Source of the DNA: an uncultured Gemmatimonadales bacterium | GTDB taxonomy: Bacteria; Gemmatimonadota; Gemmatimonadetes; Gemmatimonadales; GWC2-71-9 | DNA length: 64,000 bases | Direction of reading: 5' to 3' | Assembly (NCBI GenBank): GCA_963825055.1 | Contig: CAWGSK010000030.1 | Location: forward strand, 18,882-82,881 | In this document: piece after piece, positions 4,586 to 54,966 of the stretch | How positions within the stretch are numbered: the stretch's first letter is position 1 | Layout: each line of letters starts with the position of its first letter | The notes under the pieces: model-generated | What the model saw: only the letters and a program-made list of their open reading frames with translations | What the model was told of the DNA's origin: nothing | Databases searched by the model: none | Position numbers and translations under genes: made by a program

Positions 4586-4647
4586 AACCCTGCAACAGCA
4601 GTGCCCCCCGCCGCGACTGCGACGGGGGGCACTGTTGTTACAGGGTT
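4586..4647. terminator. Long GC-rich hairpin between convergent genes (bidirectional terminator candidate)
   Basis: AACCCTGCAACAGCAGTGCCCCCCG ... CGGGGGGCACTGTTGTTACAGGGTT form imperfect arms of about 25 nt. It lies between the ABC exporter stop (4528) and the stop of the minus-strand lipoprotein (4658). Confidence 0.5.
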
Positions 4648-4657
4648 ACCGACTGAC

Positions 4658-6289
4658 CTACTGTGCGTGCATGGTCAGTTTGATCACACCGGGGTTCGGG
4701 TCGAAGAGTATGACGGCCAGCAGGTAATCTCCGGGGGTCAGCGCAACCGTCGTAGTCTCCGGTTGGCCGTTGCCGTTGGCGCCCCCGGTGTGGCCGAAGG
4801 AGTCGGCACCGGAATCGAGAATGTTGTTGAATCCGGAGTCGATGACGTAGAGCCCGAGGTCTCCGTCACTGCTCCATTCGAGCGTCATGTCATACGTGGT
4901 GTTCGCCGGGACGGTGATCCGGTAGAACCGCGAGTCGTTTGCCGCGAACGTACCCCCACCGAACCCGCCACCGTCATAAGTCACGTTGGTATTGCCCGAC
5001 GTCGGGAGCGGAAGGAACGAGGCGTTGAACGGGTCGTCCGTGTTCAGGAACGGAGAGGCGGCCGCGGTGATAAGCTGGGTCGCGTCGAGGGACAGTACGA
5101 ATGGCCCAACGACGACGCCATCAATGGTCGGACGGCCAACTGATCCCGGCGGCGCAACGAACGTGACCGTCGTGCTGTCCGTCGACACGTTCGTGATGTA
5201 GCTGTTGAGCCCCCCGAACGACACATTGACGGAAGCCGGATCGAGCACGAAACCGGGGTCCGCCGTCATCGTGACCGTGGCGCCCGCGGCTGGGTTCGTG
5301 GCGGAGAAGGTTACCGGTGCATTCGGGACGACCGGAGACTTCACGCGCGTCGAGTCCGTGAGGTTGAACGCGAACAGGGGTGATCCGGTGGCAATGACAC
5401 CGTTGATGGTGATGGGCGCGTCCGTGTTCGGCGGCACCAGCACGCTCAGCATTGTGCTGTCGGCGCTGATACCCACCAGAATCGCGGAACTGTCGGCCGC
5501 AAAGTTCACGGTGGCGGACGGGAGGATCCGCAGCCCCGACGGCACCGTCAGGACGACCGTATCCGAGCTCGTCGGGGTGGTCGTGTTATAGGTGGCGCCG
5601 AGCTTTCCAAAGCCTTCGGTCGTGAGCGAGAGTGAGGTCGGCACCGAGAACTGCTGCCCGGGCAGGTAGCCAACTACCACGTCGTTCAGGGTCACGGGGC
5701 CGGAGACTCCGGGAGGCGGCACGAAGGTAATCTGCGTGCTGTCGGCCGACACCCCGATGAGAATCGGGCTTGCGACGCCACCCGCGAGCGTCACGGTCGA
5801 CGTGGAGGTGAACGTTATGCCTGCCGGCAGGGTGATCGTGACCGTGTCCCCGTTGGTCGGCGTCGTCGCGGACAGGGCAGCCACGATCTTGGACGGGACA
5901 ATATTCACGTCCACGGTGACCGACTTGCCTGCCGCATCTACGTCAAACGAACCCGAGACAAACGTGGAGGAGTCCTGTCCCTTCACGAAGAACCGGGCAC
6001 GGGTCTTGAGGTTGTCGCCGCCGATCACAAGGCCGTACCCGGTGTCCTGGTTCACGACGAGGCCGGCGGTCTTATTGCTGATGGTGAATTCGGCCTCGTT
6101 CTGGTTCCCGAGATCGTTCACCGCTTCCACGACGACCGCTTCACTGTCCACGTTGCTCACGAAGACGATCTGCGGGGTCGCCTTGATGCTGGCGATGGTA
6201 TCCAGGTTTGTGTCGAAGGCATTCCCTCCGCACGCCCAGATCCCGCCGGCCACGGCGACCAGGATCGAACCACGTACCAAACGGTTCAT
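4658..6289 (-). CDS. Secreted lipoprotein with three IPT/TIG-like Ig repeats and a C-terminal PPC (pre-peptidase C-terminal)-like domain
   Basis: ORF 4658..6376. The likely start is ATG 6289 (MNRLVRGSILVAVAGGIWAC, a lipobox-like signal). There are three internal repeats of about 75 aa, each containing ...SADST.ITFV.PPG..GP.T..GV... The C-terminal tail reads TYDMTLEWSSDGDLGLYVID...GDYLLAVILFD. Confidence 0.6.
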   Translation of the reverse strand: MNRLVRGSILVAVAGGIWACGGNAFDTNLDTIASIKATPQIVFVSNVDSEAVVVEAVNDLGNQNEAEFTISNKTAGLVVNQDTGYGLVIGGDNLKTRARFFVKGQDSSTFVSGSFDVDAAGKSVTVDVNIVPSKIVAALSATTPTNGDTVTITLPAGITFTSTSTVTLAGGVASPILIGVSADSTQITFVPPPGVSGPVTLNDVVVGYLPGQQFSVPTSLSLTTEGFGKLGATYNTTTPTSSDTVVLTVPSGLRILPSATVNFAADSSAILVGISADSTMLSVLVPPNTDAPITINGVIATGSPLFAFNLTDSTRVKSPVVPNAPVTFSATNPAAGATVTMTADPGFVLDPASVNVSFGGLNSYITNVSTDSTTVTFVAPPGSVGRPTIDGVVVGPFVLSLDATQLITAAASPFLNTDDPFNASFLPLPTSGNTNVTYDGGGFGGGTFAANDSRFYRITVPANTTYDMTLEWSSDGDLGLYVIDSGFNNILDSGADSFGHTGGANGNGQPETTTVALTPGDYLLAVILFDPNPGVIKLTMHAQ

Positions 6290-6388
6290 ACTGTGCACCT
6301 CATTCCTGAGAGATGGTGAGTAGCTTCCGCGAATGTACACCCTGATCCGGCCCCACACCAGAACCGGAGGACCCACAGTGTCCGGATC

Positions 6389-7825
6389 TCAATTGCTCGG
6401 CGCGTAGCCGGTGTAGAAGTCGACACCCAGGAACTGTCCGATGTCCCGAACCGCGTCTTCCCCGAGCACATCCCGCCAGCTCGGCAGTCCGCGGTACTGG
6501 AGGTCGTTGGACTGGAGGAGCACGTAGTTGCCGAGCCCCGTCCGGTCCGCGAACACGAAGTACCTGTCCCGACCCCGCGTGTATCTCCAGACTTCGTACG
6601 TCGGGGCAACACCCGACCGGACCCGCTCCAGCGTCTCATCCGGCTTGCCGTAAACGGCCCAGATTTCCCCCCTGGGGGTTTTCCATCCCGGGCGGTTTGA
6701 GCGGCCGGGCTCGCCGAACTTCTGGTTCGCGTAGGCGACGGTAGCGTAGAACTGCTCCCGCGCCTCGTTCCGCGAGGTCGAGGAATCAGGGTCGCGCTTC
6801 TTCCAGAACTGGGTGAGGAAGTTCCGCTTGGCCGCAGTAGACAGATCTCCGCTGTACGGCTTCAGCTCCCCACTCTGCGCGATAAACGTCAGTGGCTCCT
6901 CGTACACGTCGAGCGAATCCGCCTCCATGGTGGCGAAGAACCCTTCGTCCGTCACCCGCACGGCCGCGCGACGCTCCGCCTCCTGGGCCACTGCCTCCTG
7001 CAACCCCTGCATGCTGAACCCGGCGGACCGCATCACGGTGTCTTCCGGCATCTCGAGGGTTACATCCAGGCGGTACTGCCCTCCCGGCAACCCTTCGAGG
7101 TCCACATCGCCGAGGAGGATCCCTCCTCCCGCGGCCAGCTGGACCGGCCGCGGCGGCCGCTCCAGATACACCTTTCCGTCCGTGCCCAGCACTGAAACCT
7201 TCATCATTCCGGAGGCCGGCGTGTCACTGTAGGCCTCAAGGAAGTAATACAGGCTCGCGTGGAAGGGGGTCAGGCGAAGGTCGGCAATCGACGTGATCAT
7301 CAACTGTCCTGCCCGCCACTCGGAGCCTGAAGGCATCGAGTCCCCGGTCACGGCGCGGATCTGCGGCGACAGCAGCAGGTCCGATGCGAGCGGCTCGTCT
7401 GCATACCCCCGGATCTGCCGCACCGCCCGGCTGGTTCGGCCCGAGACCGAATCCTCCACCGTGACTTCCAGCTCGTACTGCCCGGGCAACACGTGGAACT
7501 CCATCATGTTGACCGTGAACGCCCCGGGCTCGCGGAGGTCGGCCCGCACATGCTGCTGCGGCCAGGAGTCCTCGAGAAGCTTGAGCCCGCTGGAGTCCCG
7601 TACCACGAAGGCAATGCGGTAACTCATGATGCCGTCAGGCCCCATGACCGTCGGCTGCATCAGGTCCAGCGGGACCTGCACGAAGGCGCGAACCTTCGTC
7701 TGGTTGCCGTCCGCCCGGTAGAACCGTACCGCCCGCACCGCCACACCACTGTCGGCCTGCGCCGACACGGGGGCCGGCGCCAGGGCCAGGGCCGCTGCCA
7801 GCGCGGCGAGAGTCAATCCTGCCAT
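6389..7825 (-). CDS. GWxTD domain-containing secreted protein
   Basis: ORF 6389..7879. The likely start is ATG 7825, with GAGGTG upstream and the signal MAGLTLAALAAALALAPAPVSAQ. The C-terminal region RPGWKTPRGEIWAVYGKPDE matches the GWxTD signature with D replaced by P. Confidence 0.7.
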   Translation of the reverse strand: MAGLTLAALAAALALAPAPVSAQADSGVAVRAVRFYRADGNQTKVRAFVQVPLDLMQPTVMGPDGIMSYRIAFVVRDSSGLKLLEDSWPQQHVRADLREPGAFTVNMMEFHVLPGQYELEVTVEDSVSGRTSRAVRQIRGYADEPLASDLLLSPQIRAVTGDSMPSGSEWRAGQLMITSIADLRLTPFHASLYYFLEAYSDTPASGMMKVSVLGTDGKVYLERPPRPVQLAAGGGILLGDVDLEGLPGGQYRLDVTLEMPEDTVMRSAGFSMQGLQEAVAQEAERRAAVRVTDEGFFATMEADSLDVYEEPLTFIAQSGELKPYSGDLSTAAKRNFLTQFWKKRDPDSSTSRNEAREQFYATVAYANQKFGEPGRSNRPGWKTPRGEIWAVYGKPDETLERVRSGVAPTYEVWRYTRGRDRYFVFADRTGLGNYVLLQSNDLQYRGLPSWRDVLGEDAVRDIGQFLGVDFYTGYAPSN

Positions 7826-7889
7826 GCCACCTCTTGATGTGCCCGGACAGGAATCCTGCCCCGACCGGGCCGCATCCATGCTTCGAAAG

Positions 7890-9011
7890 TTACCAGCCGA
7901 TATTGAAGCTGAAGAAGTTGGTCGAGCCGAGCACGCCCATGTACTTCCAGGCGTAGTCCACGCCCAGGCGGAAGTTGCCCGTCTGGTAGTTCAGCCCGCC
8001 GCCGAACGCCAGGCCCTGGAGGTTTTCCTCGTCCAGCAGCGCCGTCGACGACAGGCTGGCCGGCTCCAGGTTGTTCGCCGGGTTGTACGAGTAGCTCCCC
8101 CGCAGGGCGACCCCGAAGGCGCTGCCCCCCAGCTGGTCCAGCATCCACTCCGCCCCGGCCGAGAAGCCCGCCGAGTTGTTGTTCGGCTGGTTGAAGTCAC
8201 TCAGCACCGTCAGCCGGTTCGACGCCCCCGTCAGGAGGTCGTACGCCAGCCCCACCCGGAACGTCGTTGGCAGCGGGAAGCCCTTCGTCCGCAGCCGCGC
8301 CGGCTGGTCCAGGCTCGGCACCGGGTCCTCGCCCGGCAGCGGATCCCGCGCCGAGCCCGTGTTCAGCGCGTCCCCGCTGTAGCTCAGGTCCGTGCCCAGG
8401 TTCGCCAGCACGAACGAGAACTTCACCGGGTGGTTGTTCAGCATCGCGTGGAAGTTCGTCCCGAAGTCCACCGCAAACGCCGACCCGTTCGCATCGCCCA
8501 GGTTGTCCGAGACGAACTTCGCCGTGATGCCCGCACTGAAGCGGTCCGAGAAGTTCTCCGCGTACGTCAGGCCCGCGAACGTCTCATTCACCGAGTACAC
8601 CGACCCCGTGCCTTCCGGCTGGTCCACCGTGTACACCGGCTGGTCATTGAACCCGAACGTCCCCAGCTGGAGCCCGAACGTCCGGGCCCCGTTGCCGAAC
8701 GGGAACGCAATCCCGCCCCACGTGTACCGGGTCCCGGCCACGTAGTCATACGTCCCCAGCATCGCCCCCGGCCGCGCCATCAGCGCCGCGCCGGCGGGAT
8801 TGTAGTACAGGGCACTCACGTCGCTGGCGATCGCCGAATAGGCTCCGCCCAGCGCCGTGCCCCGCGCCCCGGCTCCCAGCAGCAGAAACTCCGCCGCCGT
8901 CGTGCCATAGGGCGTGTTGTCCTGGTTGACGTCCTGCGCCAGCCCCACGGCCGGCAGCCCGCTCAGCAGGGCGCCTACCACCAACCACCGCTTCAGGGAA
9001 AAGTCACGCAT
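7890..9011 (-). CDS. porV: PorV/PorQ-family outer membrane beta-barrel (type IX secretion shuttle, FadL-like)
   Basis: 373 aa. It has a signal peptide followed by TTAAEFLLLGAGARGTALGGAYSAIASDVSALYYNPAGAA, the characteristic PorV N-terminal motif. The sequence is rich in Gly and aromatic residues and ends ...FFSFNIGW. Confidence 0.75.
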   Translation of the reverse strand: MRDFSLKRWLVVGALLSGLPAVGLAQDVNQDNTPYGTTAAEFLLLGAGARGTALGGAYSAIASDVSALYYNPAGAALMARPGAMLGTYDYVAGTRYTWGGIAFPFGNGARTFGLQLGTFGFNDQPVYTVDQPEGTGSVYSVNETFAGLTYAENFSDRFSAGITAKFVSDNLGDANGSAFAVDFGTNFHAMLNNHPVKFSFVLANLGTDLSYSGDALNTGSARDPLPGEDPVPSLDQPARLRTKGFPLPTTFRVGLAYDLLTGASNRLTVLSDFNQPNNNSAGFSAGAEWMLDQLGGSAFGVALRGSYSYNPANNLEPASLSSTALLDEENLQGLAFGGGLNYQTGNFRLGVDYAWKYMGVLGSTNFFSFNIGW

Positions 9012-9083
9012 TGAATCTCACCTCTCCTGGATGGGGAGGACGGGGCCACCACCGTGGCCGCCCCGCCCCCCTTGGTCCCTGGC

Positions 9084-12000
9084 CTACTGAGCGAAGTTGA
9101 CGATCGTAAAGCGGCCCACCCGCCGGGCGTTGCCACTCTCGATGTGGTAGAAGTACACCCCGCTGGCGACCACCTGGTTGTTGCGGTTCCGCACGTCCCA
9201 GGTCTCCGCCCCCCCGAAGGCCGCGGCGTGGTGCTCCAGCAGCCGCACCAGCACCCCGCTCGAGGAGTAGATCCGGATGATCGCATTGTCCGGCAGGTTC
9301 ACGAACTTGATGATCTTCGTGTCCGTCGTCTGCTCGAACTCGTTCGTCACGTAGTACGGATCCGGCACCGTGTGGACCTGGCTCAGGTCCGCGTCCGTCG
9401 GCGCGTTGATCTGGTTCGTCACGTCATAACTCACCCGCAACGTCGCTCCCACCGCCGTCATGGGAAGGATGTCCTCGGGGTTGGAGTACGTATACGGACC
9501 TTCGTTACCGGCATCGCCGTTACCACCGGTGATGGCGCCGACATACTGCCGGAGTGACCAGACCGTCCCGGCAGCAGGCACCTGCCCGCCGGCGAGTTCA
9601 AAGGTGAACCAGTCTCCCGGCATCGCGAGAACGAAGCCCGCGTTGGTGGCTACCGGACTCGACGTCGCCGCCGAGAGGCTCGGACTGAAGAAGGAAACCG
9701 GTCCCGGGACCACCGTCTGGCTCAGGGTATACGTATCCGAGCCGGAGATGCTCGTGCCGAGCGAGCGCACCGGCTCGACACAACCCAGGTCCGTGGAGGT
9801 CAATTCCGTGCGACCATCGAAGCATCCCGTGGTCGCGGCGTCCGCCGCGTTCAGGACGCCCCAGGTACCGCCGATCGTCGGGCTGAACGGCACCACCACG
9901 TTGTGGGTCACGTCGATCACCGAGTCGATCGCACCACCACTCCCCCAGTAGACGTTGTAGTCCGCCGCACGGTGCGCGCCGGCCTTGATGCCCTCGACCG
10001 GCCGGTACTCACCGCCACCCACCGACTGGTACGCCTGGGTATTCTGGATGGTGACCACACCGGACAGCTCGCCGGCATTGTTGAAGTTGGTGACGGTGTT
10101 GCCCGAGAAGTTGGGCTGGTTGCCCTCGATCGGGTCAACCTTGGTCTCGTTGTTCGCCGGCGAGGGGCCGTCGAACCACCGGGAGCCGTTGTAGGAGCAC
10201 CCGCTGTTGGTGGTGAAGCCGGCACGTCCATTGACGCAGCCGCGGCCGTAGAGACTGGCGTAGTCCGGGCCGCTCAGCTTCATGCTGACCTTGCCCTGGA
10301 GCGTGTAGCCCTGCCCACCGCCATACCGGGCCGCGAGGGACGGGTTCACCGCCACCGCGCCGAACTGCGCGGAGCCGGACACGACACCGATCTCCTGGTT
10401 CATGGTGATCGGGATCGAGAACGTTGAGGTATCAGGCCCGGAAGCCGCCGTCCACCAGTACACGTGCGGGGAGCCGCCGTACGGCGAGCCCAGCGCGATG
10501 CTGTCGAGCGTGGCGGAGAAGCTGCCGGAGGTGCTCAGCACGCTGGCCACGAAGTCACCGAACCCGATGGTCCACGACTTCGCCGGCGGGAACGGCCCGG
10601 AGAACTGCCCCGTGGTCGGGTCGATGGTCGGGAGCGGCTGGGTCGGGTCGAGCACCACGCCACGGCCTTCGATGTTGGCGCTGGTGATCGTGCCGACGTT
10701 CTCATAGTTCGCCGCCGGCCGCCGCGGGGTCACCGGCTTGGTGTTGCGCGGCGACTCGAGATTCGACGGACCGGACTGGAACGAGTTGATGTCGAACGCC
10801 GTCACGGAATAGAAATACCGGAAGTTATTCCGTGGCGTCTGGTCCACGTACACGAACGGCACGCCGTTATCCGACAGCTGCGGATATACGGTGTTGTTGC
10901 CCGTCACCGCCGTGTCCGCGATCAGGACGATCGCCGTCCCGTCGGCCAGTGCCGTCCGCTCGCCCAGCTTCACCTGGACGATCTGTCCCACCAGCGGCAC
11001 GTCATTGTGCGCCGTCCGGGGCACGCCCGGGGTGATGGGATCGTACGTCGTGGGGCAGTCGGTCGTGATGGCCAGTTCCGGCGCGCAGAGCGGCGTCGGG
11101 TTCACCTGGGCCGCGTAGTCCGAAATGACCGTGCCGCCGTAGTCGAACTGCGCGAGCAGGGTCAGCGAGTTCGGCGCGTCCACCCGGCCCCGGTAGACCC
11201 GGTAGCCTTCGACGTCGAACTGGCGGTAGTTCGGGTCATACAGGGAATTCGTCGGATCCGAGGCCAGCTGGTAGTACGGGTCACCCGTGGTCTCGGAGAC
11301 CGAGGGGCGCCACAGCACCGTCACCTGGTTGTCGCCCGGCACCAGGAAGAACTCTGGCGGTTCCGGGGCGAACGGGAGCAGGAACCCACCGTCGAACACG
11401 GCCTGCGCCACCCGCGCCTTGCCGAGCAGGGAGCCCGGGACCACGTCAAACTCTTCCTGCTCCAGGATCCCGTTACCACTGGTGTCCGTGGCGCTCAGGA
11501 AGCCGGTCAGCGAGTCGATCGGGTTGACCCCGTTCGCCACGATGGCCGGGTCGGTCAGGCCCGCGATGATCGTCGGGTTGCCAGGCGGCACGTTACAGCT
11601 CGGGCCGGGGCAGGTGCCGGTCTGGACCGGGGCGGCGAAGATGTACGCCACCACTACCGAGCCGAACTCGCCCGGGCCCAGGGTCAGCGGGCCGGACGAC
11701 TGATAGAAGCGCATGTCGAACGGACCGCTGCCGCGAATGAAGCAGATCTTCGTATTGACCGGGTCGAAGTTACAGGCGTCGTCGCCGGCGGCCGTGTTGA
11801 TGTTGCCGGAGACGTAGCGCCACAGCTGTGTCGTGTTCCCGGGATCGGAGAAGCCGCCGCCGTTCGTGGTGTTGCTGAACAGCGTCAGGCCCACTTCCTG
11901 GCCATTGATCTCCGGGCTCTTCAGGTATTTCACGCCGACGAAGCCGGCGCCGGAGAAGAAGGGCTTGGAGAAGATGGCCGGGTCGAAGGACCAGCCATCC

Positions 12001-12965
12001 ACCCGGGAGAACGCGTTCTCGTAGGTATAGCCCAGGGAAAACGGCACGTTCACCGACGCGTAGTTGTTGCCGGCGCTGCCCACGTCCATGTCCGCCGAGA
12101 AGTTGGCGTACAGGTCCGTGATGGTGTAGCCCCCGCTCGGCAGGGTCACGCCGAAGGTGCTGTTGTTCCGCTGCTGGAACTCCTGGGCCTTCTGGATCAG
12201 GATGTCCCGCATCCCCGGCCGGACGGCGGCATAGTCCGCCGGATTCGCGGACGTAACGTTGTAGAACGTGTAGACGAAGTAGACGATGTCTTCATTGCCC
12301 GATGGGTAGTTCCAGCCCATGCCACGCTGTTCCACCATGACACCCAGCGGGTGCGGCCGGCCGGCGATCAGGCCCGGGTTGCCGTCCCACGTGAGCCACC
12401 AGACGTCGCCCTGCGAGGCCGAGGTCCGGCCCTGCAGGAGCGGGTTGAAGATGTCGGCCGTCGCGTCGCCGCTCGGCACCCGGGCCGCCAGGGCCACCGG
12501 GTCGCTCGTGGCCGCGTCACCGATGAAGGCCGCATCGGCCAGGTTGGTCGTGTTGTAGATCGGCGCGACTTCATCACCGTGGGTCGTGGTGCCCTTCGGG
12601 TCGAAGAGGAACGCGCCAGTCGTGTCGCCGGCCCACGGACCGCCGTTGGGGCCGATGATGCCGGCCACCTGCAGGCCGGAGTTGAAGACGTACTGGTCGG
12701 CCGTACCCTTCGGCCAGAAGCCGCCACCGATCGTGGACGAGTTGTTCGAGTCAACGCAGACCTCGCCGATGCTCGTCAGGCCGCAATAGACGCGGTTGAT
12801 CGTGAGCGCCCCGAGAGCTCGGGCAAACAGGCGGAACCCGCGGGTGTTTTTGGCGCCCGGCTCCGGCGACGCGGACGCTACCTGGGGCAGCGCCGCGGCG
12901 AGGGCCAGGGCCAGCAGCCCCGCCAGCATCACGCCTCGCTTACGAAGTAGTGAGTGCATTGGCAT
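9084..12965 (-). CDS. Large secreted protein (1293 aa) with a T9SS C-terminal sorting domain; function unknown
   Basis: Signal peptide MPMHSLLRKRGVMLAGLLALALAAALPQVASA. The C-terminus IIRIYSSSGVLVRLL...WDVRNRNNQVVASGVYFYHIESGNARRVGRFTIVNFAQ fits the Por secretion tail pattern. Cysteines occur in pairs. I recognised no catalytic motif. Confidence 0.7.
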   Translation of the reverse strand: MPMHSLLRKRGVMLAGLLALALAAALPQVASASPEPGAKNTRGFRLFARALGALTINRVYCGLTSIGEVCVDSNNSSTIGGGFWPKGTADQYVFNSGLQVAGIIGPNGGPWAGDTTGAFLFDPKGTTTHGDEVAPIYNTTNLADAAFIGDAATSDPVALAARVPSGDATADIFNPLLQGRTSASQGDVWWLTWDGNPGLIAGRPHPLGVMVEQRGMGWNYPSGNEDIVYFVYTFYNVTSANPADYAAVRPGMRDILIQKAQEFQQRNNSTFGVTLPSGGYTITDLYANFSADMDVGSAGNNYASVNVPFSLGYTYENAFSRVDGWSFDPAIFSKPFFSGAGFVGVKYLKSPEINGQEVGLTLFSNTTNGGGFSDPGNTTQLWRYVSGNINTAAGDDACNFDPVNTKICFIRGSGPFDMRFYQSSGPLTLGPGEFGSVVVAYIFAAPVQTGTCPGPSCNVPPGNPTIIAGLTDPAIVANGVNPIDSLTGFLSATDTSGNGILEQEEFDVVPGSLLGKARVAQAVFDGGFLLPFAPEPPEFFLVPGDNQVTVLWRPSVSETTGDPYYQLASDPTNSLYDPNYRQFDVEGYRVYRGRVDAPNSLTLLAQFDYGGTVISDYAAQVNPTPLCAPELAITTDCPTTYDPITPGVPRTAHNDVPLVGQIVQVKLGERTALADGTAIVLIADTAVTGNNTVYPQLSDNGVPFVYVDQTPRNNFRYFYSVTAFDINSFQSGPSNLESPRNTKPVTPRRPAANYENVGTITSANIEGRGVVLDPTQPLPTIDPTTGQFSGPFPPAKSWTIGFGDFVASVLSTSGSFSATLDSIALGSPYGGSPHVYWWTAASGPDTSTFSIPITMNQEIGVVSGSAQFGAVAVNPSLAARYGGGQGYTLQGKVSMKLSGPDYASLYGRGCVNGRAGFTTNSGCSYNGSRWFDGPSPANNETKVDPIEGNQPNFSGNTVTNFNNAGELSGVVTIQNTQAYQSVGGGEYRPVEGIKAGAHRAADYNVYWGSGGAIDSVIDVTHNVVVPFSPTIGGTWGVLNAADAATTGCFDGRTELTSTDLGCVEPVRSLGTSISGSDTYTLSQTVVPGPVSFFSPSLSAATSSPVATNAGFVLAMPGDWFTFELAGGQVPAAGTVWSLRQYVGAITGGNGDAGNEGPYTYSNPEDILPMTAVGATLRVSYDVTNQINAPTDADLSQVHTVPDPYYVTNEFEQTTDTKIIKFVNLPDNAIIRIYSSSGVLVRLLEHHAAAFGGAETWDVRNRNNQVVASGVYFYHIESGNARRVGRFTIVNFAQ

Positions 12966-13034
12966 CCTCTCTCGTGCTTAAACGTGTGGTTGGCCAGCCG
13001 GTCCGTTGCCGGACCGGCCAGCCCCCCGTGAGTA

Positions 13035-16000
13035 CTAGAAGTTGACTTCGATGCCGAGGCGCAGCCGCCGCGGGGTACCGGTAAAGTTGTCCGTCCCGCG
13101 GCCGATGAAGTAGAGCGCGTCAGAGGCCGCCTTCTGCTCATCCAGGCTGAAGATGTGGTCACCGTCGCCGTAGCGCTGTTCCGCCCGGATCAGGTACACG
13201 CAGCTTGGCGAGGCAGGGGTACCGCCCGCGGTCTGCCACGAGCCGCAGCCCGAGGCCACCGCGCCACCGAAGCGAAGGTCGATGGAGCCGTCGCCACCGT
13301 AGACCGCGTTCTTGATGGCCTCCGAGGCGAACAGCGAGCTGTCCGACTTGAACTGCTGGACCTGCTCCACCTCGTTCACGATGTCGTTCGTGGTCGTGAA
13401 GACCTGGAGAACATTCCGGAAGTTGAGGATGTTGCGGGCGTCCAGGTAGGCGGTCAATTCGACGCCGCCGAGCCCGAAGCCCTTCGTGAAGCGCATGTCG
13501 AGCTGCTTGAATGCCGGCTCACGGGCGCCGAAGAAGTCACCCACGAAGTTCTGGTTGCAGACCTGCCCGCTGACGACGCCGCGGTTACCGAGGTCGTCAC
13601 CCGGGCACTTCGTGTAGGCCTCACCGCTGGAATACCGGAAGAGCGCCGTGATACCGACGTTCCCCAGGATCGATCCCAGCGTGGTCCCCTGCTTGAAGTC
13701 GTCAGGAATCGTGAGGGCGAAGGAGCCGGTGAGGTTATGCGGACGGCTCGTCGCAGTCGGGAAAATGCCCTGCGGCGGCGGCTGGTTGCCACCCGAGACC
13801 TGGTTCACGATCCGGGAGCCGAAGTTGATGTAGGTGAACGGGTCGGACCCGGTGTTCTTCGCATCCTGGTACGTGTAGGCCAGGACGCCGTTGAAGAAGC
13901 GGCCGATCCGGCGGTCGAGCCGGACGTCGATACCGCGGGTGTTGCCGAAGTCCGCGGAGGTGAGCACCCGGATGTCCTGGTTCCGGCCGAAGAGCGGATC
14001 GAACTTCGAGATGAGCCGGCCGGCCGCGTTGGACAGGTTGTCCTTGTTGTACGCGGAGAGGTCGAGCACCATGTCGTCGCTGAACGCGTGACGGATGCCG
14101 AACTCGAAGGTGATCGTCTTGCCGAAGTCCAGGTCGGACCCGTAGACGTGGTTCGTGTTGGTGATGGCCAGGTCCGTGTTGATACCGGTCAGGACCACGC
14201 CGAAGTCCGGTACCTGCACCTGGTGGGCGTAGGAGAGCCGGAAGTTCGTGCGGTCGGTCACCGGGAAGGAGACCTGGATGTGCGGGCTCACATAGTTGTG
14301 GCTCTGGTCCCGCACGAAGTTCGCTGTCGGGTCCGTCGGGTCGAAGCCCGGGGCCGACGAGATCCGCGGGAAGTCAGCCGGACGGCTCGCACGGGAATCG
14401 TAGTAGTCGTACCGCAGGCCGCCGACCAGGACCACGTCACCGAGGTCGAGACGATCCTCAAGGAAGAGGTCGTAGCGGATCGGCTTCTCGTGGAAGATGT
14501 CCGAGAAGGCCTGGCTGGTGAGGCTGTGTGAGTAGCTGGCAATGTCGTACCGGGTGAATTCGCCGCCGATCTTCACACGGTTGTACCGGTCGAGCTGCCA
14601 GTCCAGGTTGGCCTTGCCGACCACGCGCTTTTCATTGTACAGCGACATCCGGCCGGTCGGACCGCCGCCCTCGGCGAAGCCCGTCAGGCCGTACGCATTG
14701 TTCCGGTATACGTCGATGACGTTGTACTGGTCGCGATTTTCCAGGTCGAACGGCGAGCGACGCGACCCCGGCGTGTTCAGCCGGTAGTTGTTGATCAGCT
14801 CATCATTGATCGGGAAATTGTCGAAGTTGAACAGGAAGTCCATGCTGCCGAGAATGAACCCACCCCACGGATTGCGGGTGTCGATCTCGCTCTGCCGCGT
14901 GAGCGGCGCGAGGATCGTCTGGTCGGTCTGGTAGGACAGGGCGACGTCAAGCGCCAGCGCCCGCTCCGCCGACCGCGCCAGGTTCTGGGTCCAGCCCAGC
15001 GTGACGTTGTTGCTGCGGGACCGGTTGCCGAACAGCGCCTGCGGATTGTACAGGTTGCCGTAGCTGAAGTTCCGGCCCTGGCTCTGGCTCCGCTGCCCGC
15101 TCAGGAAGATGCGGCTGCCCTGGCCGAACGTGTAGTTCATCTTGCCGGCCAGCTGGTAGACCGTCGAGGCACTGACCGGAATCCGGATGCCCTGGCAGTC
15201 CGCGCCGTAGTTGTTCTTGATATCCGCGTTCGTGCTGTTGTCAAACGCGTCGCACTTGCCCGTGTAGATCGCGTAGTTCGACACGTCCACGAACGACGTG
15301 TCCGCATTCGGGCCGAAGTTGCTGGGCACCGCGACCGTGGTGTCGATCCCCGCCTCGACGAACAGCGGGTAGTTCTCGACGCCCTGGCCGCTTTCCGCCG
15401 ACTGCTGCCCCTCGAGCACGCCCGAGAGGAAGAAGGTCAGGTTCTCGCGGACGGGGCCGCTGACGCTGGCTCCGATGCGGTTGAAGCCCGGACCGGCCGT
15501 CTTGCCGAAGACCTCGTCCGTCTCGTAGCGCAGGTTGCCGGCAAAGCTCTGGCCGCCGTTGCGGGTTTCAATGTTGATGATACCCGACTGCGCGTTGCCA
15601 AACTCGGCCGATGATGCGCCCGTCGTGACCGACGCCTGCTCGAACCCGTTGGTGCCGACGGAAATACCGCCGGTACCGTTCGAGCCCACGAAGGCATTGC
15701 CACGGTAGCCCGGCGAGACCGGCACGCCGTCAATGTACGTGGCCGCCTCGTCGGACCGGCCGCCCCGGATGTTGATGCGGCCACCGCTCGGGCTCGCCAC
15801 GACACCTGGCTGCAGTGCCAGCACGTCGTTGATCCGGTCGGCCGGCAGCTTGGCGACGTAGTCACCGTCCAGCCGCTGCTTGGTCGAGACCTCGTCTCGA
15901 GGCACCAGCTGCTGCCGCGCGCCGACCACGACGACCGAGTCCACCTGGAACGGCGTCTGCTCGAGCGTGACGTCCGTGGTCAGCGTCTGGCCGGCGAGGA

Positions 16001-16301
16001 CCTTGATGTCCCGCACCTCCGTACGCTTGTAACCCACGAACGCGGCCCGTACGGTCGCAGGACCGATCGGCACGTTGTTGAAGAAGTAGTAACCCTGGTT
16101 GTTGGTCAGAGTCGCGAACGCGGTACCCACGATGGTGACCTGGGCATTCGCAATCGGTGCACCCGACTGATCGCGTACTCTGCCTTCGATCTTACCAGTC
16201 GCCTGCGCATAGAGCGATCCCGCTCCAAGCGCGAGGCCGACTGCCGCCAGCGCAAACCACCGCGCTGCGCGGGCGAAGGCCCCTACACAACTTTGTTTCA
16301 T
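13035..16301 (-). CDS. TonB-dependent receptor-like outer membrane barrel with an N-terminal carboxypeptidase-regulatory-like domain (Oar-like architecture)
   Basis: ORF 13035..16355. ATG 16301 is preceded by GGAGG. The signal ends ...GAGSLYAQ. The N-terminal domain reads GKIEGRVRDQSGAPIANAQVTIVGT...NNQGYYFFNNVP. Plug motifs are LALQPGVV and INIRGGRSDEAATYIDGVP. The C-terminal residue is F (LRLGIEVNF). Confidence 0.8.
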   Translation of the reverse strand: MKQSCVGAFARAARWFALAAVGLALGAGSLYAQATGKIEGRVRDQSGAPIANAQVTIVGTAFATLTNNQGYYFFNNVPIGPATVRAAFVGYKRTEVRDIKVLAGQTLTTDVTLEQTPFQVDSVVVVGARQQLVPRDEVSTKQRLDGDYVAKLPADRINDVLALQPGVVASPSGGRINIRGGRSDEAATYIDGVPVSPGYRGNAFVGSNGTGGISVGTNGFEQASVTTGASSAEFGNAQSGIINIETRNGGQSFAGNLRYETDEVFGKTAGPGFNRIGASVSGPVRENLTFFLSGVLEGQQSAESGQGVENYPLFVEAGIDTTVAVPSNFGPNADTSFVDVSNYAIYTGKCDAFDNSTNADIKNNYGADCQGIRIPVSASTVYQLAGKMNYTFGQGSRIFLSGQRSQSQGRNFSYGNLYNPQALFGNRSRSNNVTLGWTQNLARSAERALALDVALSYQTDQTILAPLTRQSEIDTRNPWGGFILGSMDFLFNFDNFPINDELINNYRLNTPGSRRSPFDLENRDQYNVIDVYRNNAYGLTGFAEGGGPTGRMSLYNEKRVVGKANLDWQLDRYNRVKIGGEFTRYDIASYSHSLTSQAFSDIFHEKPIRYDLFLEDRLDLGDVVLVGGLRYDYYDSRASRPADFPRISSAPGFDPTDPTANFVRDQSHNYVSPHIQVSFPVTDRTNFRLSYAHQVQVPDFGVVLTGINTDLAITNTNHVYGSDLDFGKTITFEFGIRHAFSDDMVLDLSAYNKDNLSNAAGRLISKFDPLFGRNQDIRVLTSADFGNTRGIDVRLDRRIGRFFNGVLAYTYQDAKNTGSDPFTYINFGSRIVNQVSGGNQPPPQGIFPTATSRPHNLTGSFALTIPDDFKQGTTLGSILGNVGITALFRYSSGEAYTKCPGDDLGNRGVVSGQVCNQNFVGDFFGAREPAFKQLDMRFTKGFGLGGVELTAYLDARNILNFRNVLQVFTTTNDIVNEVEQVQQFKSDSSLFASEAIKNAVYGGDGSIDLRFGGAVASGCGSWQTAGGTPASPSCVYLIRAEQRYGDGDHIFSLDEQKAASDALYFIGRGTDNFTGTPRRLRLGIEVNF

Positions 16302-16483
16302 GGAGTCCTCCAATGGCGTGATCACGAAGTACTGCCGAGCCATCAACAAACGCACGTCCCCCCGGCAGATTCCTGGGGACGATAGACCCTGATGCTGGAC
16401 ACGGACCTGCTAGTAAAGCGAGGGGTTGCAACTAGCTGACTTCTGAGATCTTGGACTCCGGTCGCGGCCCGACCGGAGCAGAC

Positions 16484-16512
16484 AATATGGGACGCCCCCT
16501 GTAGCATGTCAA
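16484..16512 (-). promoter_or_regulatory. Sigma70-like promoter candidate for the envelope operon
   Basis: The minus strand reads TTGACA, a 17-nt spacer, then CATATT. A perfect 9-bp hairpin follows immediately (16456..16478, CTCCGGTCG/CGACCGGAG). The ATG at 16301 is about 180 nt downstream. Confidence 0.4.
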
Positions 16513-16583
16513 GAAAGCGTCACGACTTGCGACATTCGGTGCGAGCCGGTGTAACCCTGTGAAACATCGTGAGATGACCTCGA

Positions 16584-16655
16584 GGCGGTGAAGACGGTCA
16601 GGACGGTCAGGGCGGTCTGGGCGGTCTGGGCGGTCTTGTCCGTCCTGTCCGTCAT
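16584..16655. repeat. Tandem 9-nt repeat array (8 units) forming an imperfect palindrome at the 3' end of the M24 peptidase gene
   Basis: Units are GGCGGTGAA GACGGTCAG GACGGTCAG GGCGGTCTG GGCGGTCTG GGCGGTCTT GTCCGTCCT GTCCGTCAT. The outer units are inverted copies: GACGGTCAGGACGG versus CCGTCCTGTCCGTC, with 1 mismatch. Confidence 0.8.
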
Positions 16656-17827
16656 GCCACTATCAGATCCACCTGCGGCGCCTCCGGCGTCACCCGCGGA
16701 CCGGAGAGACCCATATGGACGTTGATCTCGCTCCGAACCCCGAAACGACCCTCAAGATACACCCCGGGCTCCACCGAAAAACCCACTCCCGGTAAAAGGA
16801 CCCGCTCATCCCGGGTTTCGTAACTGTCCAGATGTGGCCCCGAGCCGTGAAGGTCACGATCGATGGAGTGTCCTGTCCGGTGGACAAATGCCTCACCGTA
16901 GCCGGCCCCTTCTATAATAGCCCGCGCTGCCCGGTCCAGCTCGAACCCCCTGACAGGCCGCCCGGCAGAAGCCGCCGACCGCGCCAGCTCGACCGCGGCA
17001 TCCCGGGCATCACGTACCGTTTCCCAGACGGAAAGCACGTCCGCCGGCGGCTCGGCCCCGGCAAACCCCATCCAGGTCTGGTCGGCGAAGACCGTCCGCC
17101 GACTCCGGCCACCCCACAGGTCCAGCAACACCACATCCCCCGCCTGAAGCTCCGCGTCCTTCCCCTCCATCGGCTCATAGTGCGGATTGGCCGAGTTCGG
17201 CCCGAAACCCACAATCGGAAGGGTATCGAGGGCAAGCCCGCCCTCCTTCATGTCCGCAATCACCCGCCGCTGGAGTTCCACTTCCCGAAGACCCGATCCA
17301 GCCTGCCGAACTGCGTCCTGCACCGCCCGCCGGGCGACCCGGGCCAGTACCTCCGCCGCGAAAAGGTGGTCCTCCAGCTCCTCCGGGGTCCAGGCCGCGG
17401 CAAAACGGGTCACGAGGCTGGAGGACGGAACCACGGTGGCCCCGAGACGGGTCAGGAGCTGGATCACGCCATGGGGCACACGGTCCAGGTAGGGCACCGC
17501 ATCCTCGGGCGAGACCTCCATGGCGACCGTCCGGCCGGCGACCACCCCACGCAGCGCCTCATGCAACTCCTCCCAGCGGGCATACGGCACGACGCGCCCG
17601 GGAAAGTCCTTGAACGGCTGCAACTCGATCCGGTGCACGACGGCCACCGGGTCGCCCGCTTTCGGCAGGTAGACGAACAGCCGGCGTGTTCCCATGCCCA
17701 GGGGGCCAAGCATCCTCGGCGTGACCGGGTTCACCCCATGGAAATCGTAGAGGAGCCAGCCATCGGCTCCCAGTTCATTCAGGGTCTCGGCCAGAAGGCC
17801 TCGATCCAGCCCCGCCAGGTCGGTCAT
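16652..17827 (-). CDS. M24-family metallopeptidase (Xaa-Pro aminopeptidase/dipeptidase-like)
   Basis: 391 aa. Metal-ligand motifs of the pita-bread fold are present: HRTGHSIDRDLHGSGP and VGFSVEPGVY. Confidence 0.8.
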   Translation of the reverse strand: MTDLAGLDRGLLAETLNELGADGWLLYDFHGVNPVTPRMLGPLGMGTRRLFVYLPKAGDPVAVVHRIELQPFKDFPGRVVPYARWEELHEALRGVVAGRTVAMEVSPEDAVPYLDRVPHGVIQLLTRLGATVVPSSSLVTRFAAAWTPEELEDHLFAAEVLARVARRAVQDAVRQAGSGLREVELQRRVIADMKEGGLALDTLPIVGFGPNSANPHYEPMEGKDAELQAGDVVLLDLWGGRSRRTVFADQTWMGFAGAEPPADVLSVWETVRDARDAAVELARSAASAGRPVRGFELDRAARAIIEGAGYGEAFVHRTGHSIDRDLHGSGPHLDSYETRDERVLLPGVGFSVEPGVYLEGRFGVRSEINVHMGLSGPRVTPEAPQVDLIVA

Positions 17828-18570: not shown

Positions 18571-19137
18571 ATGACCACGCACGCCCTGGCGCGGGAAGAA
18601 TTCGACGCCGTGGTCCTGCCTCACCTCGACCTGCTCTACCGGACGGCGTTGCGGTTCACGTCCGACCCGGCCCGCGCCGAGGACCTGGTGCAGGATACCA
18701 TGCTCAAGGCCTACCGCTCGCGTACCAGCTTCCAGCCGGGAACCAACGCCCGGGCATGGCTGTTGACCATCCTGCGTAACACGTTCATCAACGCGTACCA
18801 TCGCCGGAAGCGCGAACCGGTCGCCATGGACATCGAGGCGATGGAATCGAGCCTGCGGCCCCGGCCGGATGACCCGGCCGCCGCCGACGGGGCCTTTCTC
18901 GATCACATCGTCGACGAGCGCATCCTCCAGGCCCTGGATGCCCTTCCGCAGGAGTTCCGGGAAGTGCTGGTGCTGAGCGACGTGGAAAACCTGCCCTACG
19001 CGGAGATCGCCCAGGCACTCGACCTGCCCCTGGGCACGGTGAAGTCCCGCCTCTTCCGTGCCCGGCGTCTCATGCGCGCCGAGCTGTATCGCTACGCCGT
19101 GGAGGTGGGTTACCTGTCACCCCGGAGGACTCCATGA
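18571..19137 (+). CDS. ECF-type RNA polymerase sigma factor (SigR/SigE-like)
   Basis: Region 2 reads LLYRTALRFTSDPARAEDLVQDTMLKAY and WLLTILRNTFIN. Region 4 reads LPYAEIAQALDLPLGTVKSRLFRARR. Confidence 0.9.
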   Translation: MTTHALAREEFDAVVLPHLDLLYRTALRFTSDPARAEDLVQDTMLKAYRSRTSFQPGTNARAWLLTILRNTFINAYHRRKREPVAMDIEAMESSLRPRPDDPAAADGAFLDHIVDERILQALDALPQEFREVLVLSDVENLPYAEIAQALDLPLGTVKSRLFRARRLMRAELYRYAVEVGYLSPRRTP

Positions 19138-19397
19138 CCCATGATCACGATTGCGGCGCCGGGGGAGATCCCTGCGGGGAGGCGATGCGGGAGCTGGTGG
19201 ACTACCTGAAGGGCGAAGTCCCCTCCGACGCGGCCGACCGCATCCGGGAACATCTCGCGAAGTGCAGGCCCTGCGAGGGGGAAGCCCACTTCGAGGAACA
19301 CTTCCTCGCCCTGCTGGAGACACGCCTCCGCGGAGAGCGCTGCCCCGACCGCCTCAAGGCCCGGATCCGCGAAGCGCTCGACGCCATCGAGTCCTGA
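19134..19397 (+). CDS. Cytoplasmic zinc-binding anti-sigma factor (ZAS family, RsrA-like)
   Basis: 87 aa with no TM segment. The HLAKCRPC motif fits H-x3-C-x2-C, and there is an upstream Cys. An ATGA overlap links it to the sigma factor gene. Confidence 0.8.
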   Translation: MTHDHDCGAGGDPCGEAMRELVDYLKGEVPSDAADRIREHLAKCRPCEGEAHFEEHFLALLETRLRGERCPDRLKARIREALDAIES

Positions 19398-19440
19398 CAT
19401 CCCCAGCCTGCCCCTTGCCATCCTGCTGTCCGGTGCCGTC

Positions 19441-20163
19441 GTGGCCGGTGCGGCACTTACCGGTCACCTCGGACGATCAGGCGCCGCCGCAGCCATGCTG
19501 GTAGGCACCGCCGTGCTCACGGGCGCGGGTTACGCGGGAGGCCTGACCCTCCTGCTCTTCTTCGTAGGCGCCTCGGCCGTCGGGCACCTCGCGCCCGACC
19601 CGGCCCGCCACCTCGGCGCGCGGGGCGGCCGCCGGGATGCCTGGCAGGTGCTCGCCAACGGCGGCGCCGCCGCCGTTTCCGCCCTCCTCTTCCCCGGTCC
19701 CCTGGCGCTCTGGATGGTGGTTGCGAGCCTCGCGGCTGCCGCCTCCGACACCTGGGCCTCCGGCCTTGGCGCCCTCTCGCGCCGGGAGCCCCGCGACATC
19801 CTCCGGTGGCGGACGGTGCCGGCCGGTACCAGCGGTGGCGTCACCGCGCTGGGGACCGCCGGGGGACTGATCGGCGCCCTGACAGTGGCGCTCCCCCTCG
19901 GCCTCCTGACCCGGGCCGCACCCCCGGCCGCGGCCGCAATGGGGATAGGTTTCGGGGGGATGCTGCTGGACTCGCTCCTGGGCGCCTGGCTGCAGGGCAA
20001 ATTCGCCTGCCGACGGTGCGGGATGAACAGTGAGCGCCGGCGGCACGCATGCGGAGACCTGACAGAGAGGACCGGAGGCCTGACATGGCTCACCAACGAC
20101 GGCGTGAATGCAATCGTAACGGTTTCGGCCGCTGCGGTGTCGTGGTGGGCCTGGCCCTGGTAG
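19441..20163 (+). CDS. DUF92 (TMEM19/COG1836) family integral membrane protein
   Basis: 240 aa, polytopic. Motifs include DAWQVLANGGAAA, ASDTWASGLG, VPAGTSGGVTALGTAGGL and DSLLGAWLQ. It has a GTG start. Confidence 0.7.
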   Translation: MAGAALTGHLGRSGAAAAMLVGTAVLTGAGYAGGLTLLLFFVGASAVGHLAPDPARHLGARGGRRDAWQVLANGGAAAVSALLFPGPLALWMVVASLAAAASDTWASGLGALSRREPRDILRWRTVPAGTSGGVTALGTAGGLIGALTVALPLGLLTRAAPPAAAAMGIGFGGMLLDSLLGAWLQGKFACRRCGMNSERRRHACGDLTERTGGLTWLTNDGVNAIVTVSAAAVSWWAWPW

Positions 20164-51052: not shown

Positions 51053-51201
51053 AGCGCTTGCCGCACACGCCCCATCCGCCTACGTTCCGCAGACAATCGA
51101 ACCCGTGGTGATTTGCGCCTATTGCGGCCACGTTAAACAACTCGCTAAAACGCCGCCCGGGGTGTTTTGGCACCGCGGGTTTCCGTGTTTCGGGAGGTTT
51201 C

Positions 51202-54200: not shown

Positions 54201-54949
54201 CCGCATCATCCGTGAGCGCTCGGTGACCGCGCGTGCGGTGTTCGGCCTCTTCCCTGCCGCGGCCGATGGCGACGACATCGTCCTGTACGACGACCCCGGT
54301 CGGGAACGCGTCCGCGCCGTCGTCCACACGCTCAGGCAACAGATGACGAAGGGGCCGGACAGGCCCAATTACGCCCTGGCCGACTTCGTCGCCCCCGTCG
54401 GCAGCGGGGTCCCCGATCATCTCGGCGCCTTCGTGGTGACTGCCGGCATCGGCCTTCCGGAGCTCATTGCCCATTTCGAGGCGGCCAACGACGACTACTC
54501 CGCTATCATGGCTCGCGCGATCACCGACCGCCTGGCCGAGGCGTTCGCCGAGCGGCTGCACGAGCGGATCCGCCGCGAGTTCTGGGGCTATGCGCCGGAC
54601 GAACACCTGGACAACGCCGATCTGATCCGCGAGCGCTACCAGGGCATCCGACCCGCGCCGGGCTACCCCGCCTGCCCGGATCACACCGAGAAGCAGATCC
54701 TGTTCAGCCTGCTGGACGCGGAAGAACGGATCGGAGTCCGGCTGACCGAGAGTTGCGCCATGCTGCCGGCCGCATCCGTCAGCGGGTACTACTTCTGGCA
54801 TCCGGAGTCGCGGTACTTCGGGGTCGGTACCATCGAGCGGGACCAGCTCGAGGACTACGCCCGGAGAAAGGGCATGCCGGTGAATGAGCTTGCGCGCTGG
54901 CTCGCGCCGAACCTCGACCACACGCCGGAAGCACGCGCGGAGGAGGCCC

Positions 54950-54966
<17 letters not shown>
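51202..54966 (+). CDS. metH: Cobalamin-dependent methionine synthase
   Basis: 1254 aa. The Hcy domain carries [12 protein letters not shown] pterin-binding domain is present. The B12 motif is [11 protein letters not shown] (DxHxxG). The C-terminal AdoMet activation domain ends ...[12 protein letters not shown]. Confidence 0.95.

Follow-up and report, generated by a model that had tools for sequence, protein, structure and literature searches.

A conserved five-gene operon for outer-membrane proteins occupies positions 4658-16355, on the minus strand, of a 64,000-nucleotide stretch of DNA (hereinafter the window) from an uncultured bacterium of the order Gemmatimonadales. In the direction of transcription, its genes encode a TonB-dependent transporter (TBDT), a 1293-aa surface protein that we denote BIG, an outer-membrane barrel of the PorV/PorQ family, a GWxTD protein and a lipoprotein. 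The reading that we prefer, tentatively and while granting it somewhat less than an even chance, is that BIG is exported through a type IX secretion system (T9SS), is displayed on its cognate barrel and forms with the TBDT a unit for capture and uptake, to which the GWxTD protein and the lipoprotein are accessory. The combination of genes is undescribed, and the principles at its center are known, namely the anchoring of a C-terminal domain (CTD) on a barrel and the pairing of a TBDT with a surface partner. The original prediction, made from the sequence of the window, held that the operon could not be mapped to a described system; this stands for the combination but not for its central pair, which has precedents in PorZ-PorQ, PorU-PorV and the type-B CTD proteins with their PorP-like barrels.

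The five open reading frames (ORFs) lie head to tail, and the short gaps between them that had been noted earlier are confirmed, at 69, 72, 10 and 12 nt; if the last two genes start at their likelier internal ATGs, the gaps before them widen to 64 and 99 nt. The G+C content at third codon positions (GC3) is 0.81-0.93 across all five ORFs, and each of the five products begins with a hydrophobic segment resembling a signal peptide, as judged by eye and in agreement with the original prediction. Profile searches likewise uphold, at the level of families, its assignments of the CTD, the PorV-family barrel, the GWxTD protein and the Plug and CarboxypepD_reg domains.

The case for surface anchoring starts from the end of BIG (ORF 9084-12965, minus strand, from the ORF list). 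Residues ~1196-1293 (9087..9380, minus strand), starting with HTVPDPYY, constitute a T9SS-type CTD in which VPDPYY, IRIYSSSG and ASGVYFY-type motifs are visible and which was delineated through matches to the PorZ, Por_Secre_tail and PorU models. In the window copy, the PorZ model aligns at model positions 686-756 only (29.7 bits, E 2e-7), whereas Por_Secre_tail (TIGR04183) gives 19.4 bits (E 8e-4) against a cut-off of 23 and CHU_C gives 21 against 27. Among diverse members of the family, which are 33-59% identical, all 35 match the PorZ model over its 70 C-terminal positions (best E 1.6e-10), 29 of the 35 match Por_Secre_tail at E up to 0.01 (best 3.8e-7), and seven match the PorU model NF033707 weakly (best E 4e-4). 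Moreover, the CTD is the best-conserved stretch of BIG, with a mean pairwise column identity of 0.57 compared to 0.37 in the body.

The body of BIG is of a different nature. It contains no Pfam domain, and sequence and profile searches of the PDB match the PorZ CTD alone. An AlphaFold2 model of residues 30-1205 is nearly all beta, with a mean predicted local distance difference test (pLDDT) score of 73 that rises above 90 for the last ~430 residues; Foldseek matches of this model are weak (TM-scores of 0.10-0.16), involve the beta-supersandwich N-domains of GH94/GH116-type enzymes and include neither a peptidase nor a propeller. Disulfides are suggested by the conserved Cys residues, which lie in close pairs. 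Database searches recover 1150 homologs, with 820 representatives at the 50% clustering level; the best 120 of the 1150 are full-length proteins of ~1,300 aa, 56-100% identical to BIG, and the named ones all come from Gemmatimonadota, while the distant representatives carry no taxon label. BIG is a secreted, all-beta, multidomain protein of an uncharacterized family that is so far limited to Gemmatimonadota. Two more specific identities were considered for it and rejected. As PorZ it fails because the match is confined to the CTD, at 29.7 bits against a cut-off of 260, and propellers are absent by sequence, profile and fold; as a PorU sortase it fails because the window copy matches neither Peptidase_C25 nor NF033707, shows no peptidase fold and has similarity in the CTD only.

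The gene immediately downstream of BIG (7890-9011, minus strand) encodes a FadL-like outer-membrane barrel of the PorV/PorQ family, the presumed anchor of the BIG CTD. It matches the family model NF033709 at 147.6 bits, against a cut-off of 90, with residues 37-371 covering model positions 1-324 of 326, and a profile of the barrel family finds Flavobacterium johnsoniae PorV (6h3i_F) with E 3e-11. The equivalog cut-offs are all missed: that for PorV (NF033710) at 50.9 bits against 250, that for PorQ (NF033711) at 68.3 bits against 220 and over the N-terminal half only, and that for 'PorV2' by far, so that the protein lies slightly nearer to PorQ than to PorV. The original label PorV thus holds for the family but not for the protein, which its sequence places within the PorV/PorQ family and outside the PorV orthologs. 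The barrel is the best-conserved protein of the operon (43-82% identity across loci), and its gene lies directly 3' of BIG in 54 of 73 BIG copies, 49 of them with a TBDT gene upstream and 5 without.

Given a conserved CTD encoded next to a conserved PorV/PorQ-family barrel, the simplest meaning of the pair would be a permanent CTD-barrel anchor. In type-B CTD systems, the barrel gene stands immediately downstream of the cargo gene. These systems (e.g., SprB-SprF and PG1035-PorP), in which PorP-like barrels hold type-B CTD proteins, resemble the present pair in that one dedicated anchoring barrel serves one large CTD surface protein (PMC9143113); they differ from it in that the CTD of BIG looks type-A and PorZ-like and the operon barrel belongs to the PorV/PorQ family rather than to PorP/SprF. 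The closer parallel is the attachment complex of Porphyromonas gingivalis, in which PorZ and PorU, T9SS proteins with uncleaved CTDs, are anchored on PorQ and PorV, respectively (PMC10947112). Here too a secreted protein, its CTD uncleaved, would be kept at the surface by a 14-strand barrel of the PorV/PorQ family, and the CTD of BIG is most like that of PorZ. The differences are that the body of BIG has no relationship to PorZ, with its two propellers, or to PorU, with its C25 peptidase, that the barrel fails both equivalog cut-offs, and that the BIG and barrel genes are adjacent and embedded with TBDT and GWxTD genes. The description of BIG as a giant CTD cargo accordingly needs amendment: the T9SS-type CTD is there, but its likeness is to the CTDs that PorZ and PorU keep uncleaved, and the sequence conservation of BIG, at 57-88% identity over full length in the close relatives listed, suggests a conserved partner rather than an ordinary cargo.

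The case for a transport function starts from the first gene of the operon. The TBDT ORF (13035-16355, minus strand) opens at a GTG at 16355; the likelier start is the ATG at 16301, which is preceded by GGAGGA, so that the likely gene is 13035..16301. The product has all the elements of the Oar/SusC-type architecture: a CarboxypepD_reg extension (72.7 bits), a TonB-box-like strand between this extension and the plug, a Plug domain (37.6 bits) and a large barrel, with ~830 aa beyond the plug and a terminal Phe that is retained in 47 of 51 orthologs. The barrel model PF00593 is not detected in the window TBDT at E up to 1, whereas it is detected in the orthologs at the loci L001 and L084 (L numbers denote the genome loci compared below), and orthologs also match TonB_dep_Rec_b-barrel and OMP_b-brl_4. 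PDB matches of the N-terminal domain are to the N-terminal domains of SusC; the SusC/RagA model TIGR04056 is matched over the N-terminal part only, at 41.3 bits against a cut-off of 368.

TBDTs whose genes immediately precede that of a surface-exposed partner, such as those of SusCD and RagAB, have uptake as their established role, and we favor capture and uptake for the operon TBDT for this reason. The likeness to SusC/SusD, RagA/RagB and TbpA/TbpB consists in a TBDT with a CarboxypepD_reg-type extension whose gene lies directly 5' of that of a surface partner, and Sus loci also resemble the operon in including Ig-like surface lipoproteins, comparable to SusE/F. Unlike SusC/SusD and RagA/RagB, however, the operon lacks a SusD-like lipoprotein, since none of the four proteins encoded downstream of the TBDT matches the SusD family, and the partner is a 1,300-aa CTD protein anchored, as predicted, via a separate barrel. 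The original prediction had instead read the Oar-type barrel as a pointer to protein export. The TBDT does share an N-terminal extension, plug and barrel with Oar of Myxococcus xanthus, which PopC requires for its secretion, but PopC has neither a signal peptide nor a CTD, and there is no export evidence for the operon TBDT. The argument from Oar is weak because 28% of all TBDTs share this architecture, which is also that of SusC and is the dominant one in Bacteroidetes (PMC6434023).

Comparison of genomes shows that the arrangement is conserved across Gemmatimonadales and that parts of it are co-inherited. A scan of genomes yielded 335 loci, and synteny was derived from the best 80 of these (79 distinct) by mapping the window proteins with tblastn. 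All 79 are named Gemmatimonadota except for one metagenome-assembled genome labeled Acidobacteria and one 'uncultured bacterium'. The order TBDT-BIG-barrel-GWxTD, mostly followed by the lipoprotein gene, is kept in most of them, down to 38% identity of BIG. The refutation named in the original prediction, a gene order not shared by relatives, thus did not occur. Synteny extends in most loci to the flanking genes, with an M24 peptidase gene upstream and ABC transporter and COX15/UbiA genes downstream, so that the informative cases are the exceptions to this neighborhood. One of these is L084, where BIG is 35% identical and the flanks are unrelated, yet the TBDT-BIG-barrel-GWxTD core is retained.

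Further exceptions are second loci at which two genes only are found. TBDT and BIG alone form such loci in six cases (L027, L029, L031, L032, L046 and L074), and BIG and the barrel alone in three (L002, L045 and L056); one genome has the full cluster plus a separate BIG-barrel pair 35 kb away. The TBDTs of L027, L031 and L046 are one another's nearest relatives, as are their BIGs, and they form a clade of their own in both comparisons, which indicates that the pair was duplicated and retained as a unit. BIG itself has been duplicated repeatedly within lineages. At L035, L065 and L067, which belong to one clade, an extra copy lies 5' of the TBDT gene (BIG2-TBDT-BIG); L077 and L079 have two sister copies each; and L083 carries tandem copies of 1219 and 1223 aa (10001-17328) without TBDT or barrel. 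Solitary and tandem BIG-BIG copies adjoin unrelated genes. As a separate observation, large Ser/Thr protein kinase genes flank second-locus TBDT-BIG pairs (L027, 3484-6501 and 15115-16656; L029, 13922-16936).

Considering these observations together, we propose the following sequence of events. BIG would cross the inner membrane via Sec and take the type IX route across the outer membrane, with the CTD as signal; the CTD would then not be discarded but bound to the barrel encoded immediately downstream, which would hold BIG on the cell surface. There BIG and the TBDT would most probably act as a unit that captures a large or scarce external substrate for TonB-energized uptake, by a logic like that of SusCD/RagAB or TbpAB minus SusD; this is argued by analogy with those systems. 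Two further products, the GWxTD protein and the variable lipoprotein with its Ig-like and PPC domains, would be accessory components. Expression would be driven by a single conserved sigma-70-type promoter, with hairpins after the first genes grading the amounts of the products. Export of BIG by a T9SS is plausible in this phylum, because Gemmatimonadetes are listed among the phyla possibly having a T9SS (PMC11285876) and because Chlorobiota are given as the sole phylum of the Fibrobacterota-Chlorobiota-Bacteroidota (FCB) group without SprA and SusCD in a study whose species table includes Gemmatimonas aurantiaca, which implies SprA in Gemmatimonadota (PMC12611786).

Several considerations weigh against this proposal. 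Nothing similar to SprA or PorKLMN is encoded in the operon or in the 64-kb window, and the earlier description of the operon as a self-contained secretion module has to be given up, as it has no translocon. The CTD of the window BIG scores below the curated cut-offs. The body of BIG has no binding or catalytic domain recognizable with Pfam or Foldseek, so that substrate capture is an argument by analogy. Solitary BIG paralogs with neither a TBDT nor a barrel gene alongside occur at L019, L026, L072, L076 and L083. The physical interactions among the operon proteins are predictions from gene order and family membership; the proposal assigns the GWxTD protein no specific role; and conservation across the order, beside housekeeping genes, fits a core role in envelope biogenesis equally well.

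A bolder version of the same scheme, which we regard as unlikely, is that the TBDT, BIG, the barrel and the GWxTD protein are parts of one unrecognized outer-membrane machine specific to Gemmatimonadota, in which the CTD and the barrel dock a giant module permanently onto the TBDT. If so, the operon would specify a 'utilisome' that is assembled by the T9SS and independent of SusD or, in a more radical form, a TonB-energized exporter or remodeler of surface material, and the GWxTD domain would gain its first function.

The likeness to the attachment complex can also be taken more literally, with BIG and the barrel as the phylum's equivalent of PorZ-PorQ or PorU-PorV, which would serve the secretion and attachment of other CTD cargo rather than itself include a working surface protein. 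PorZ and PorU are themselves both substrates and components of the T9SS, with CTDs that stay uncleaved (PMC10947112). The CTD of BIG is nearest to that of PorZ in every one of the 35 members compared, seven of which also touch the PorU model, PorQ gives the barrel its best equivalog score (68 bits), and BIG, with its near-constant length, is far more conserved than typical cargo. The body of BIG, however, has neither the beta-propellers of PorZ nor the C25 peptidase of PorU, by sequence or by fold, and its Cys pairs look like disulfides rather than catalytic Cys residues. Furthermore, repeated lineage-specific duplication of BIG and its tight link to the TBDT are unexpected for attachment machinery. 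We consider this equivalence improbable and retain the capture-and-uptake unit as the preferred interpretation.

The fourth gene, which is kept 3' of the barrel gene in almost every cluster locus and in L084, brings up another alternative. Its ORF (6389-7879, minus strand; likely start ATG 7825) encodes a protein that matches TIGR04514 at 78.9 bits (cut-off 28) and PF20094 at 48.6 bits (cut-off 26.9) and has no lipobox. The eponymous motif reads GWKTP in the window copy (residues 398-402), with Pro where at least 90% of the relatives carry Asp; G398 and W399 are invariant. The AlphaFold2 model (pLDDT 86) consists of two Ig/fibronectin type III-like sandwiches (residues 47-290) followed by the C-terminal alpha/beta GWxTD domain (residues 293-490 of the model). 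On the DNA, the GWxTD domain is assigned to 6512-6979. The Foldseek matches, to RbmA and to transglutaminase C-terminal barrels, stem from the N-terminal sandwiches, and the top 50 are dominated by Ig-like matches that mask those of the GWxTD domain itself. When used singly, the sequence matched the PWe1 endolysin (E 0.007); a profile built from 28 sequences did not repeat this match, and we therefore treat it as chance and reject an endolysin-like identity for the domain. The original prediction described GWxTD proteins as having no assigned function, and in the literature searched we found no mention of GWxTD.

The barrel and the GWxTD protein could be the Gemmatimonadota counterparts of BamG and BamH, accessory proteins of the barrel-assembly machinery (BAM) of F. 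johnsoniae, in which case the operon would serve the biogenesis of outer-membrane proteins, for example by assembling the adjacent large TBDT and displaying BIG. A pair of adjacent genes, GAU_1453 (BamG) and GAU_1452 (BamH), is in fact listed for Gemmatimonas aurantiaca, bamG and bamH lie next to each other in each of the six FCB representatives outside Bacteroidota that possess them, and BamG, a 14-strand barrel of the FadL family, binds BamH at its beta-sandwich end (PMC12611786). The operon, too, has the gene of a FadL-superfamily barrel beside that of a secreted protein with N-terminal beta-sandwiches, and this pair is universal and well conserved in the order Gemmatimonadales, as expected of an essential function. 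Nonetheless, neither sequence nor fold connected the operon proteins with BamG (Fjoh_1412) or BamH (Fjoh_0823) of F. johnsoniae: the barrel-family profile that finds PorV matches no chain of BamG up to an E of 10, and NCBIfam assigns the barrel to the PorV/PorQ family. F. johnsoniae BamH appears, from accession numbers, to be a DUF4270 lipoprotein, whereas DUF4270 is not seen in the operon proteins at E up to 10 and the GWxTD protein is not a lipoprotein. The structure 9N2D is outside the top 50 Foldseek matches of the GWxTD model, its presence in the searched PDB set being unconfirmed. On balance, the BamG/BamH identity strikes us as about as doubtful as that with the attachment complex, and we continue to regard the GWxTD protein as an accessory of the proposed BIG-TBDT unit.

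The last gene (4658-6376, minus strand; likely start ATG 6289) encodes the second presumed accessory, an Ig-like (IPT/TIG)/PPC lipoprotein with PPC at 28.7 bits (cut-off 25.9) and TIG at 20.2, just under its cut-off of 20.9. Its lipobox reads IWA followed by the Cys, which is retained in 30 of 33 orthologs. It is the least conserved member of the operon, with orthologs of 271-667 aa at 25-42% identity, and is missing or replaced in some loci. In most of the orthologs the lipobox Cys is followed by x-x-D-P-T and then by more acidic residues (window 6230-6289, minus strand), a stretch that we take to resemble the surface-export signal of Bacteroidota lipoproteins.

With respect to expression, the original prediction had placed the operon behind a single promoter at 16484..16512 (minus strand). 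In the window alone, this sigma-70-type sequence, TTGACA-17-CATATT, is no better than chance (1 found against 1.3 expected), yet TTGACA-17/18-NATAYT is present 5' of the TBDT gene in 32 of 35 orthologous loci. As the same hexamers and spacing recur in genomes of 64-72% GC, we consider the promoter real. In an alignment of 33 upstream regions, the Shine-Dalgarno sequence is likewise conserved, and a motif GTTTCA-N4-RGTTAC (16551..16565, minus strand), ~40 nt 5' of the -35 hexamer, is conserved at 60-90% or more and is a candidate transcription-factor site of the direct-repeat type. An additional GTGAC adjoins the -35 hexamer and, together with this motif, resembles direct-repeat half-sites one helical turn apart, presumably in the style of OmpR/PhoB-type regulators. 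A hairpin with compensatory changes among the aligned loci forms the 5' end of the leader, directly 3' of the -10 hexamer (16456..16483, minus strand; minimum free energy (MFE) -20.8 kcal/mol, z -3.05, none of 200 shuffles as stable). An Rfam search over 4658-16700 found no riboswitch or other known RNA 5' of the TBDT gene.

Hairpins also follow the first genes. Just 3' of the TBDT stop is a perfect 14-bp GC-rich hairpin (12992..13023, minus strand; z -6.27, none of 200 shuffles as stable), a candidate attenuator or mRNA-stability element; a hairpin occupies the same position in 62 loci, with a median MFE of -43 kcal/mol. Another GC-rich hairpin, 3' of the BIG stop (9035..9071, minus strand; MFE -39 kcal/mol, z -2.0 in the window), has the same position in 59 loci, and a third, 3' of the barrel stop, keeps its position in 49 loci and is not significant in the window. 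As the gaps contain little besides a hairpin and a Shine-Dalgarno sequence, there is little room for internal promoters, and co-transcription with graded read-through is the simplest account; the 'one transcript' of the operon is probably read through to graded degrees and not expressed uniformly. At L004, the barrel-GWxTD gap (~5940-6070) is occupied by an AT-rich repeat (TTTAGTGA units) that folds into a long hairpin, unlike the GC-rich hairpins elsewhere.

These features bear on a more skeptical interpretation, that the five genes encode independent envelope proteins that are neighbors merely by inherited chromosomal synteny in one order. The M24 peptidase, ABC transporter and COX15/UbiA neighborhood is indeed syntenic in most loci as well, and the hairpins 3' of TBDT and BIG could be terminators. 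But the four-gene core outlasts a change of flanks in L084, TBDT-BIG and BIG-barrel pairs recur at second loci, and a single conserved promoter precedes genes separated by little more than a hairpin and a Shine-Dalgarno sequence; we consider a lack of joint function highly improbable. Least probable, by a little, is protein export by the TBDT itself, for which one can cite the precedent of TBDT-dependent protein secretion (PMC6434023), the co-inheritance of TBDT and BIG as a unit and the absence of another translocon from the operon and the window, but which is opposed by the generic nature of the Oar architecture and the match of the N-terminal domain to SusC extensions, by the T9SS-type CTD, which has a known translocon of its own, SprA being reported across the FCB phyla except Chlorobiota (PMC12611786), by the size of a folded all-beta protein of ~1,260 aa, far beyond anything shown to pass a 22-strand barrel, and by the occurrence of BIG-barrel pairs and solitary BIGs without an adjacent TBDT.

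Beyond the operon, a long hairpin with a ~29-bp stem (4586..4647) lies in the 129-nt gap between the lipoprotein gene and the convergent ABC-transporter gene and is likely a bidirectional terminator (MFE -79 kcal/mol, z -7.1, none of 200 shuffles as stable). About 2.2 kb upstream of the operon and divergent from it are, judging from synteny with L001 and L082, genes for an extracytoplasmic function (ECF) sigma factor and a zf-HC2 anti-sigma factor (18571-19504, plus strand); an M24 peptidase gene and one gene without a Pfam match lie in between. As the TBDT lacks an STN signaling domain, a regulatory link between it and this pair is not implied. The remaining large genes of the window are housekeeping genes. 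Two riboswitches were detected elsewhere in the window: a c-di-GMP-I aptamer (RF01051; 28614-28691, minus strand; 52.1 bits, with a gathering score of 35) and a SAM-II (SAM_alpha) riboswitch (51095-51168, plus strand; 50.9 bits) directly 5' of the gene for the B12-dependent methionine synthase (51202-54966).

Gemmatimonadota are abundant in soil, and their cell envelope is almost unstudied. The operon holds two families without known function, the 1,300-aa BIG and GWxTD, and, outside Bacteroidota, joins a PorZ-like CTD and a barrel of the PorV/PorQ family to a TBDT in one fixed genetic partnership. Should the barrel and the GWxTD protein prove to be BamG and BamH, the operon would tie accessory BAM subunits to a particular transporter as their client. 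If, on the other hand, the partners are physically associated, the principle of a CTD protein on a cognate barrel would be extended from the T9SS machinery to nutrient transporters, and the operon would offer a tractable entry into the use of type IX components by FCB bacteria other than Bacteroidota.

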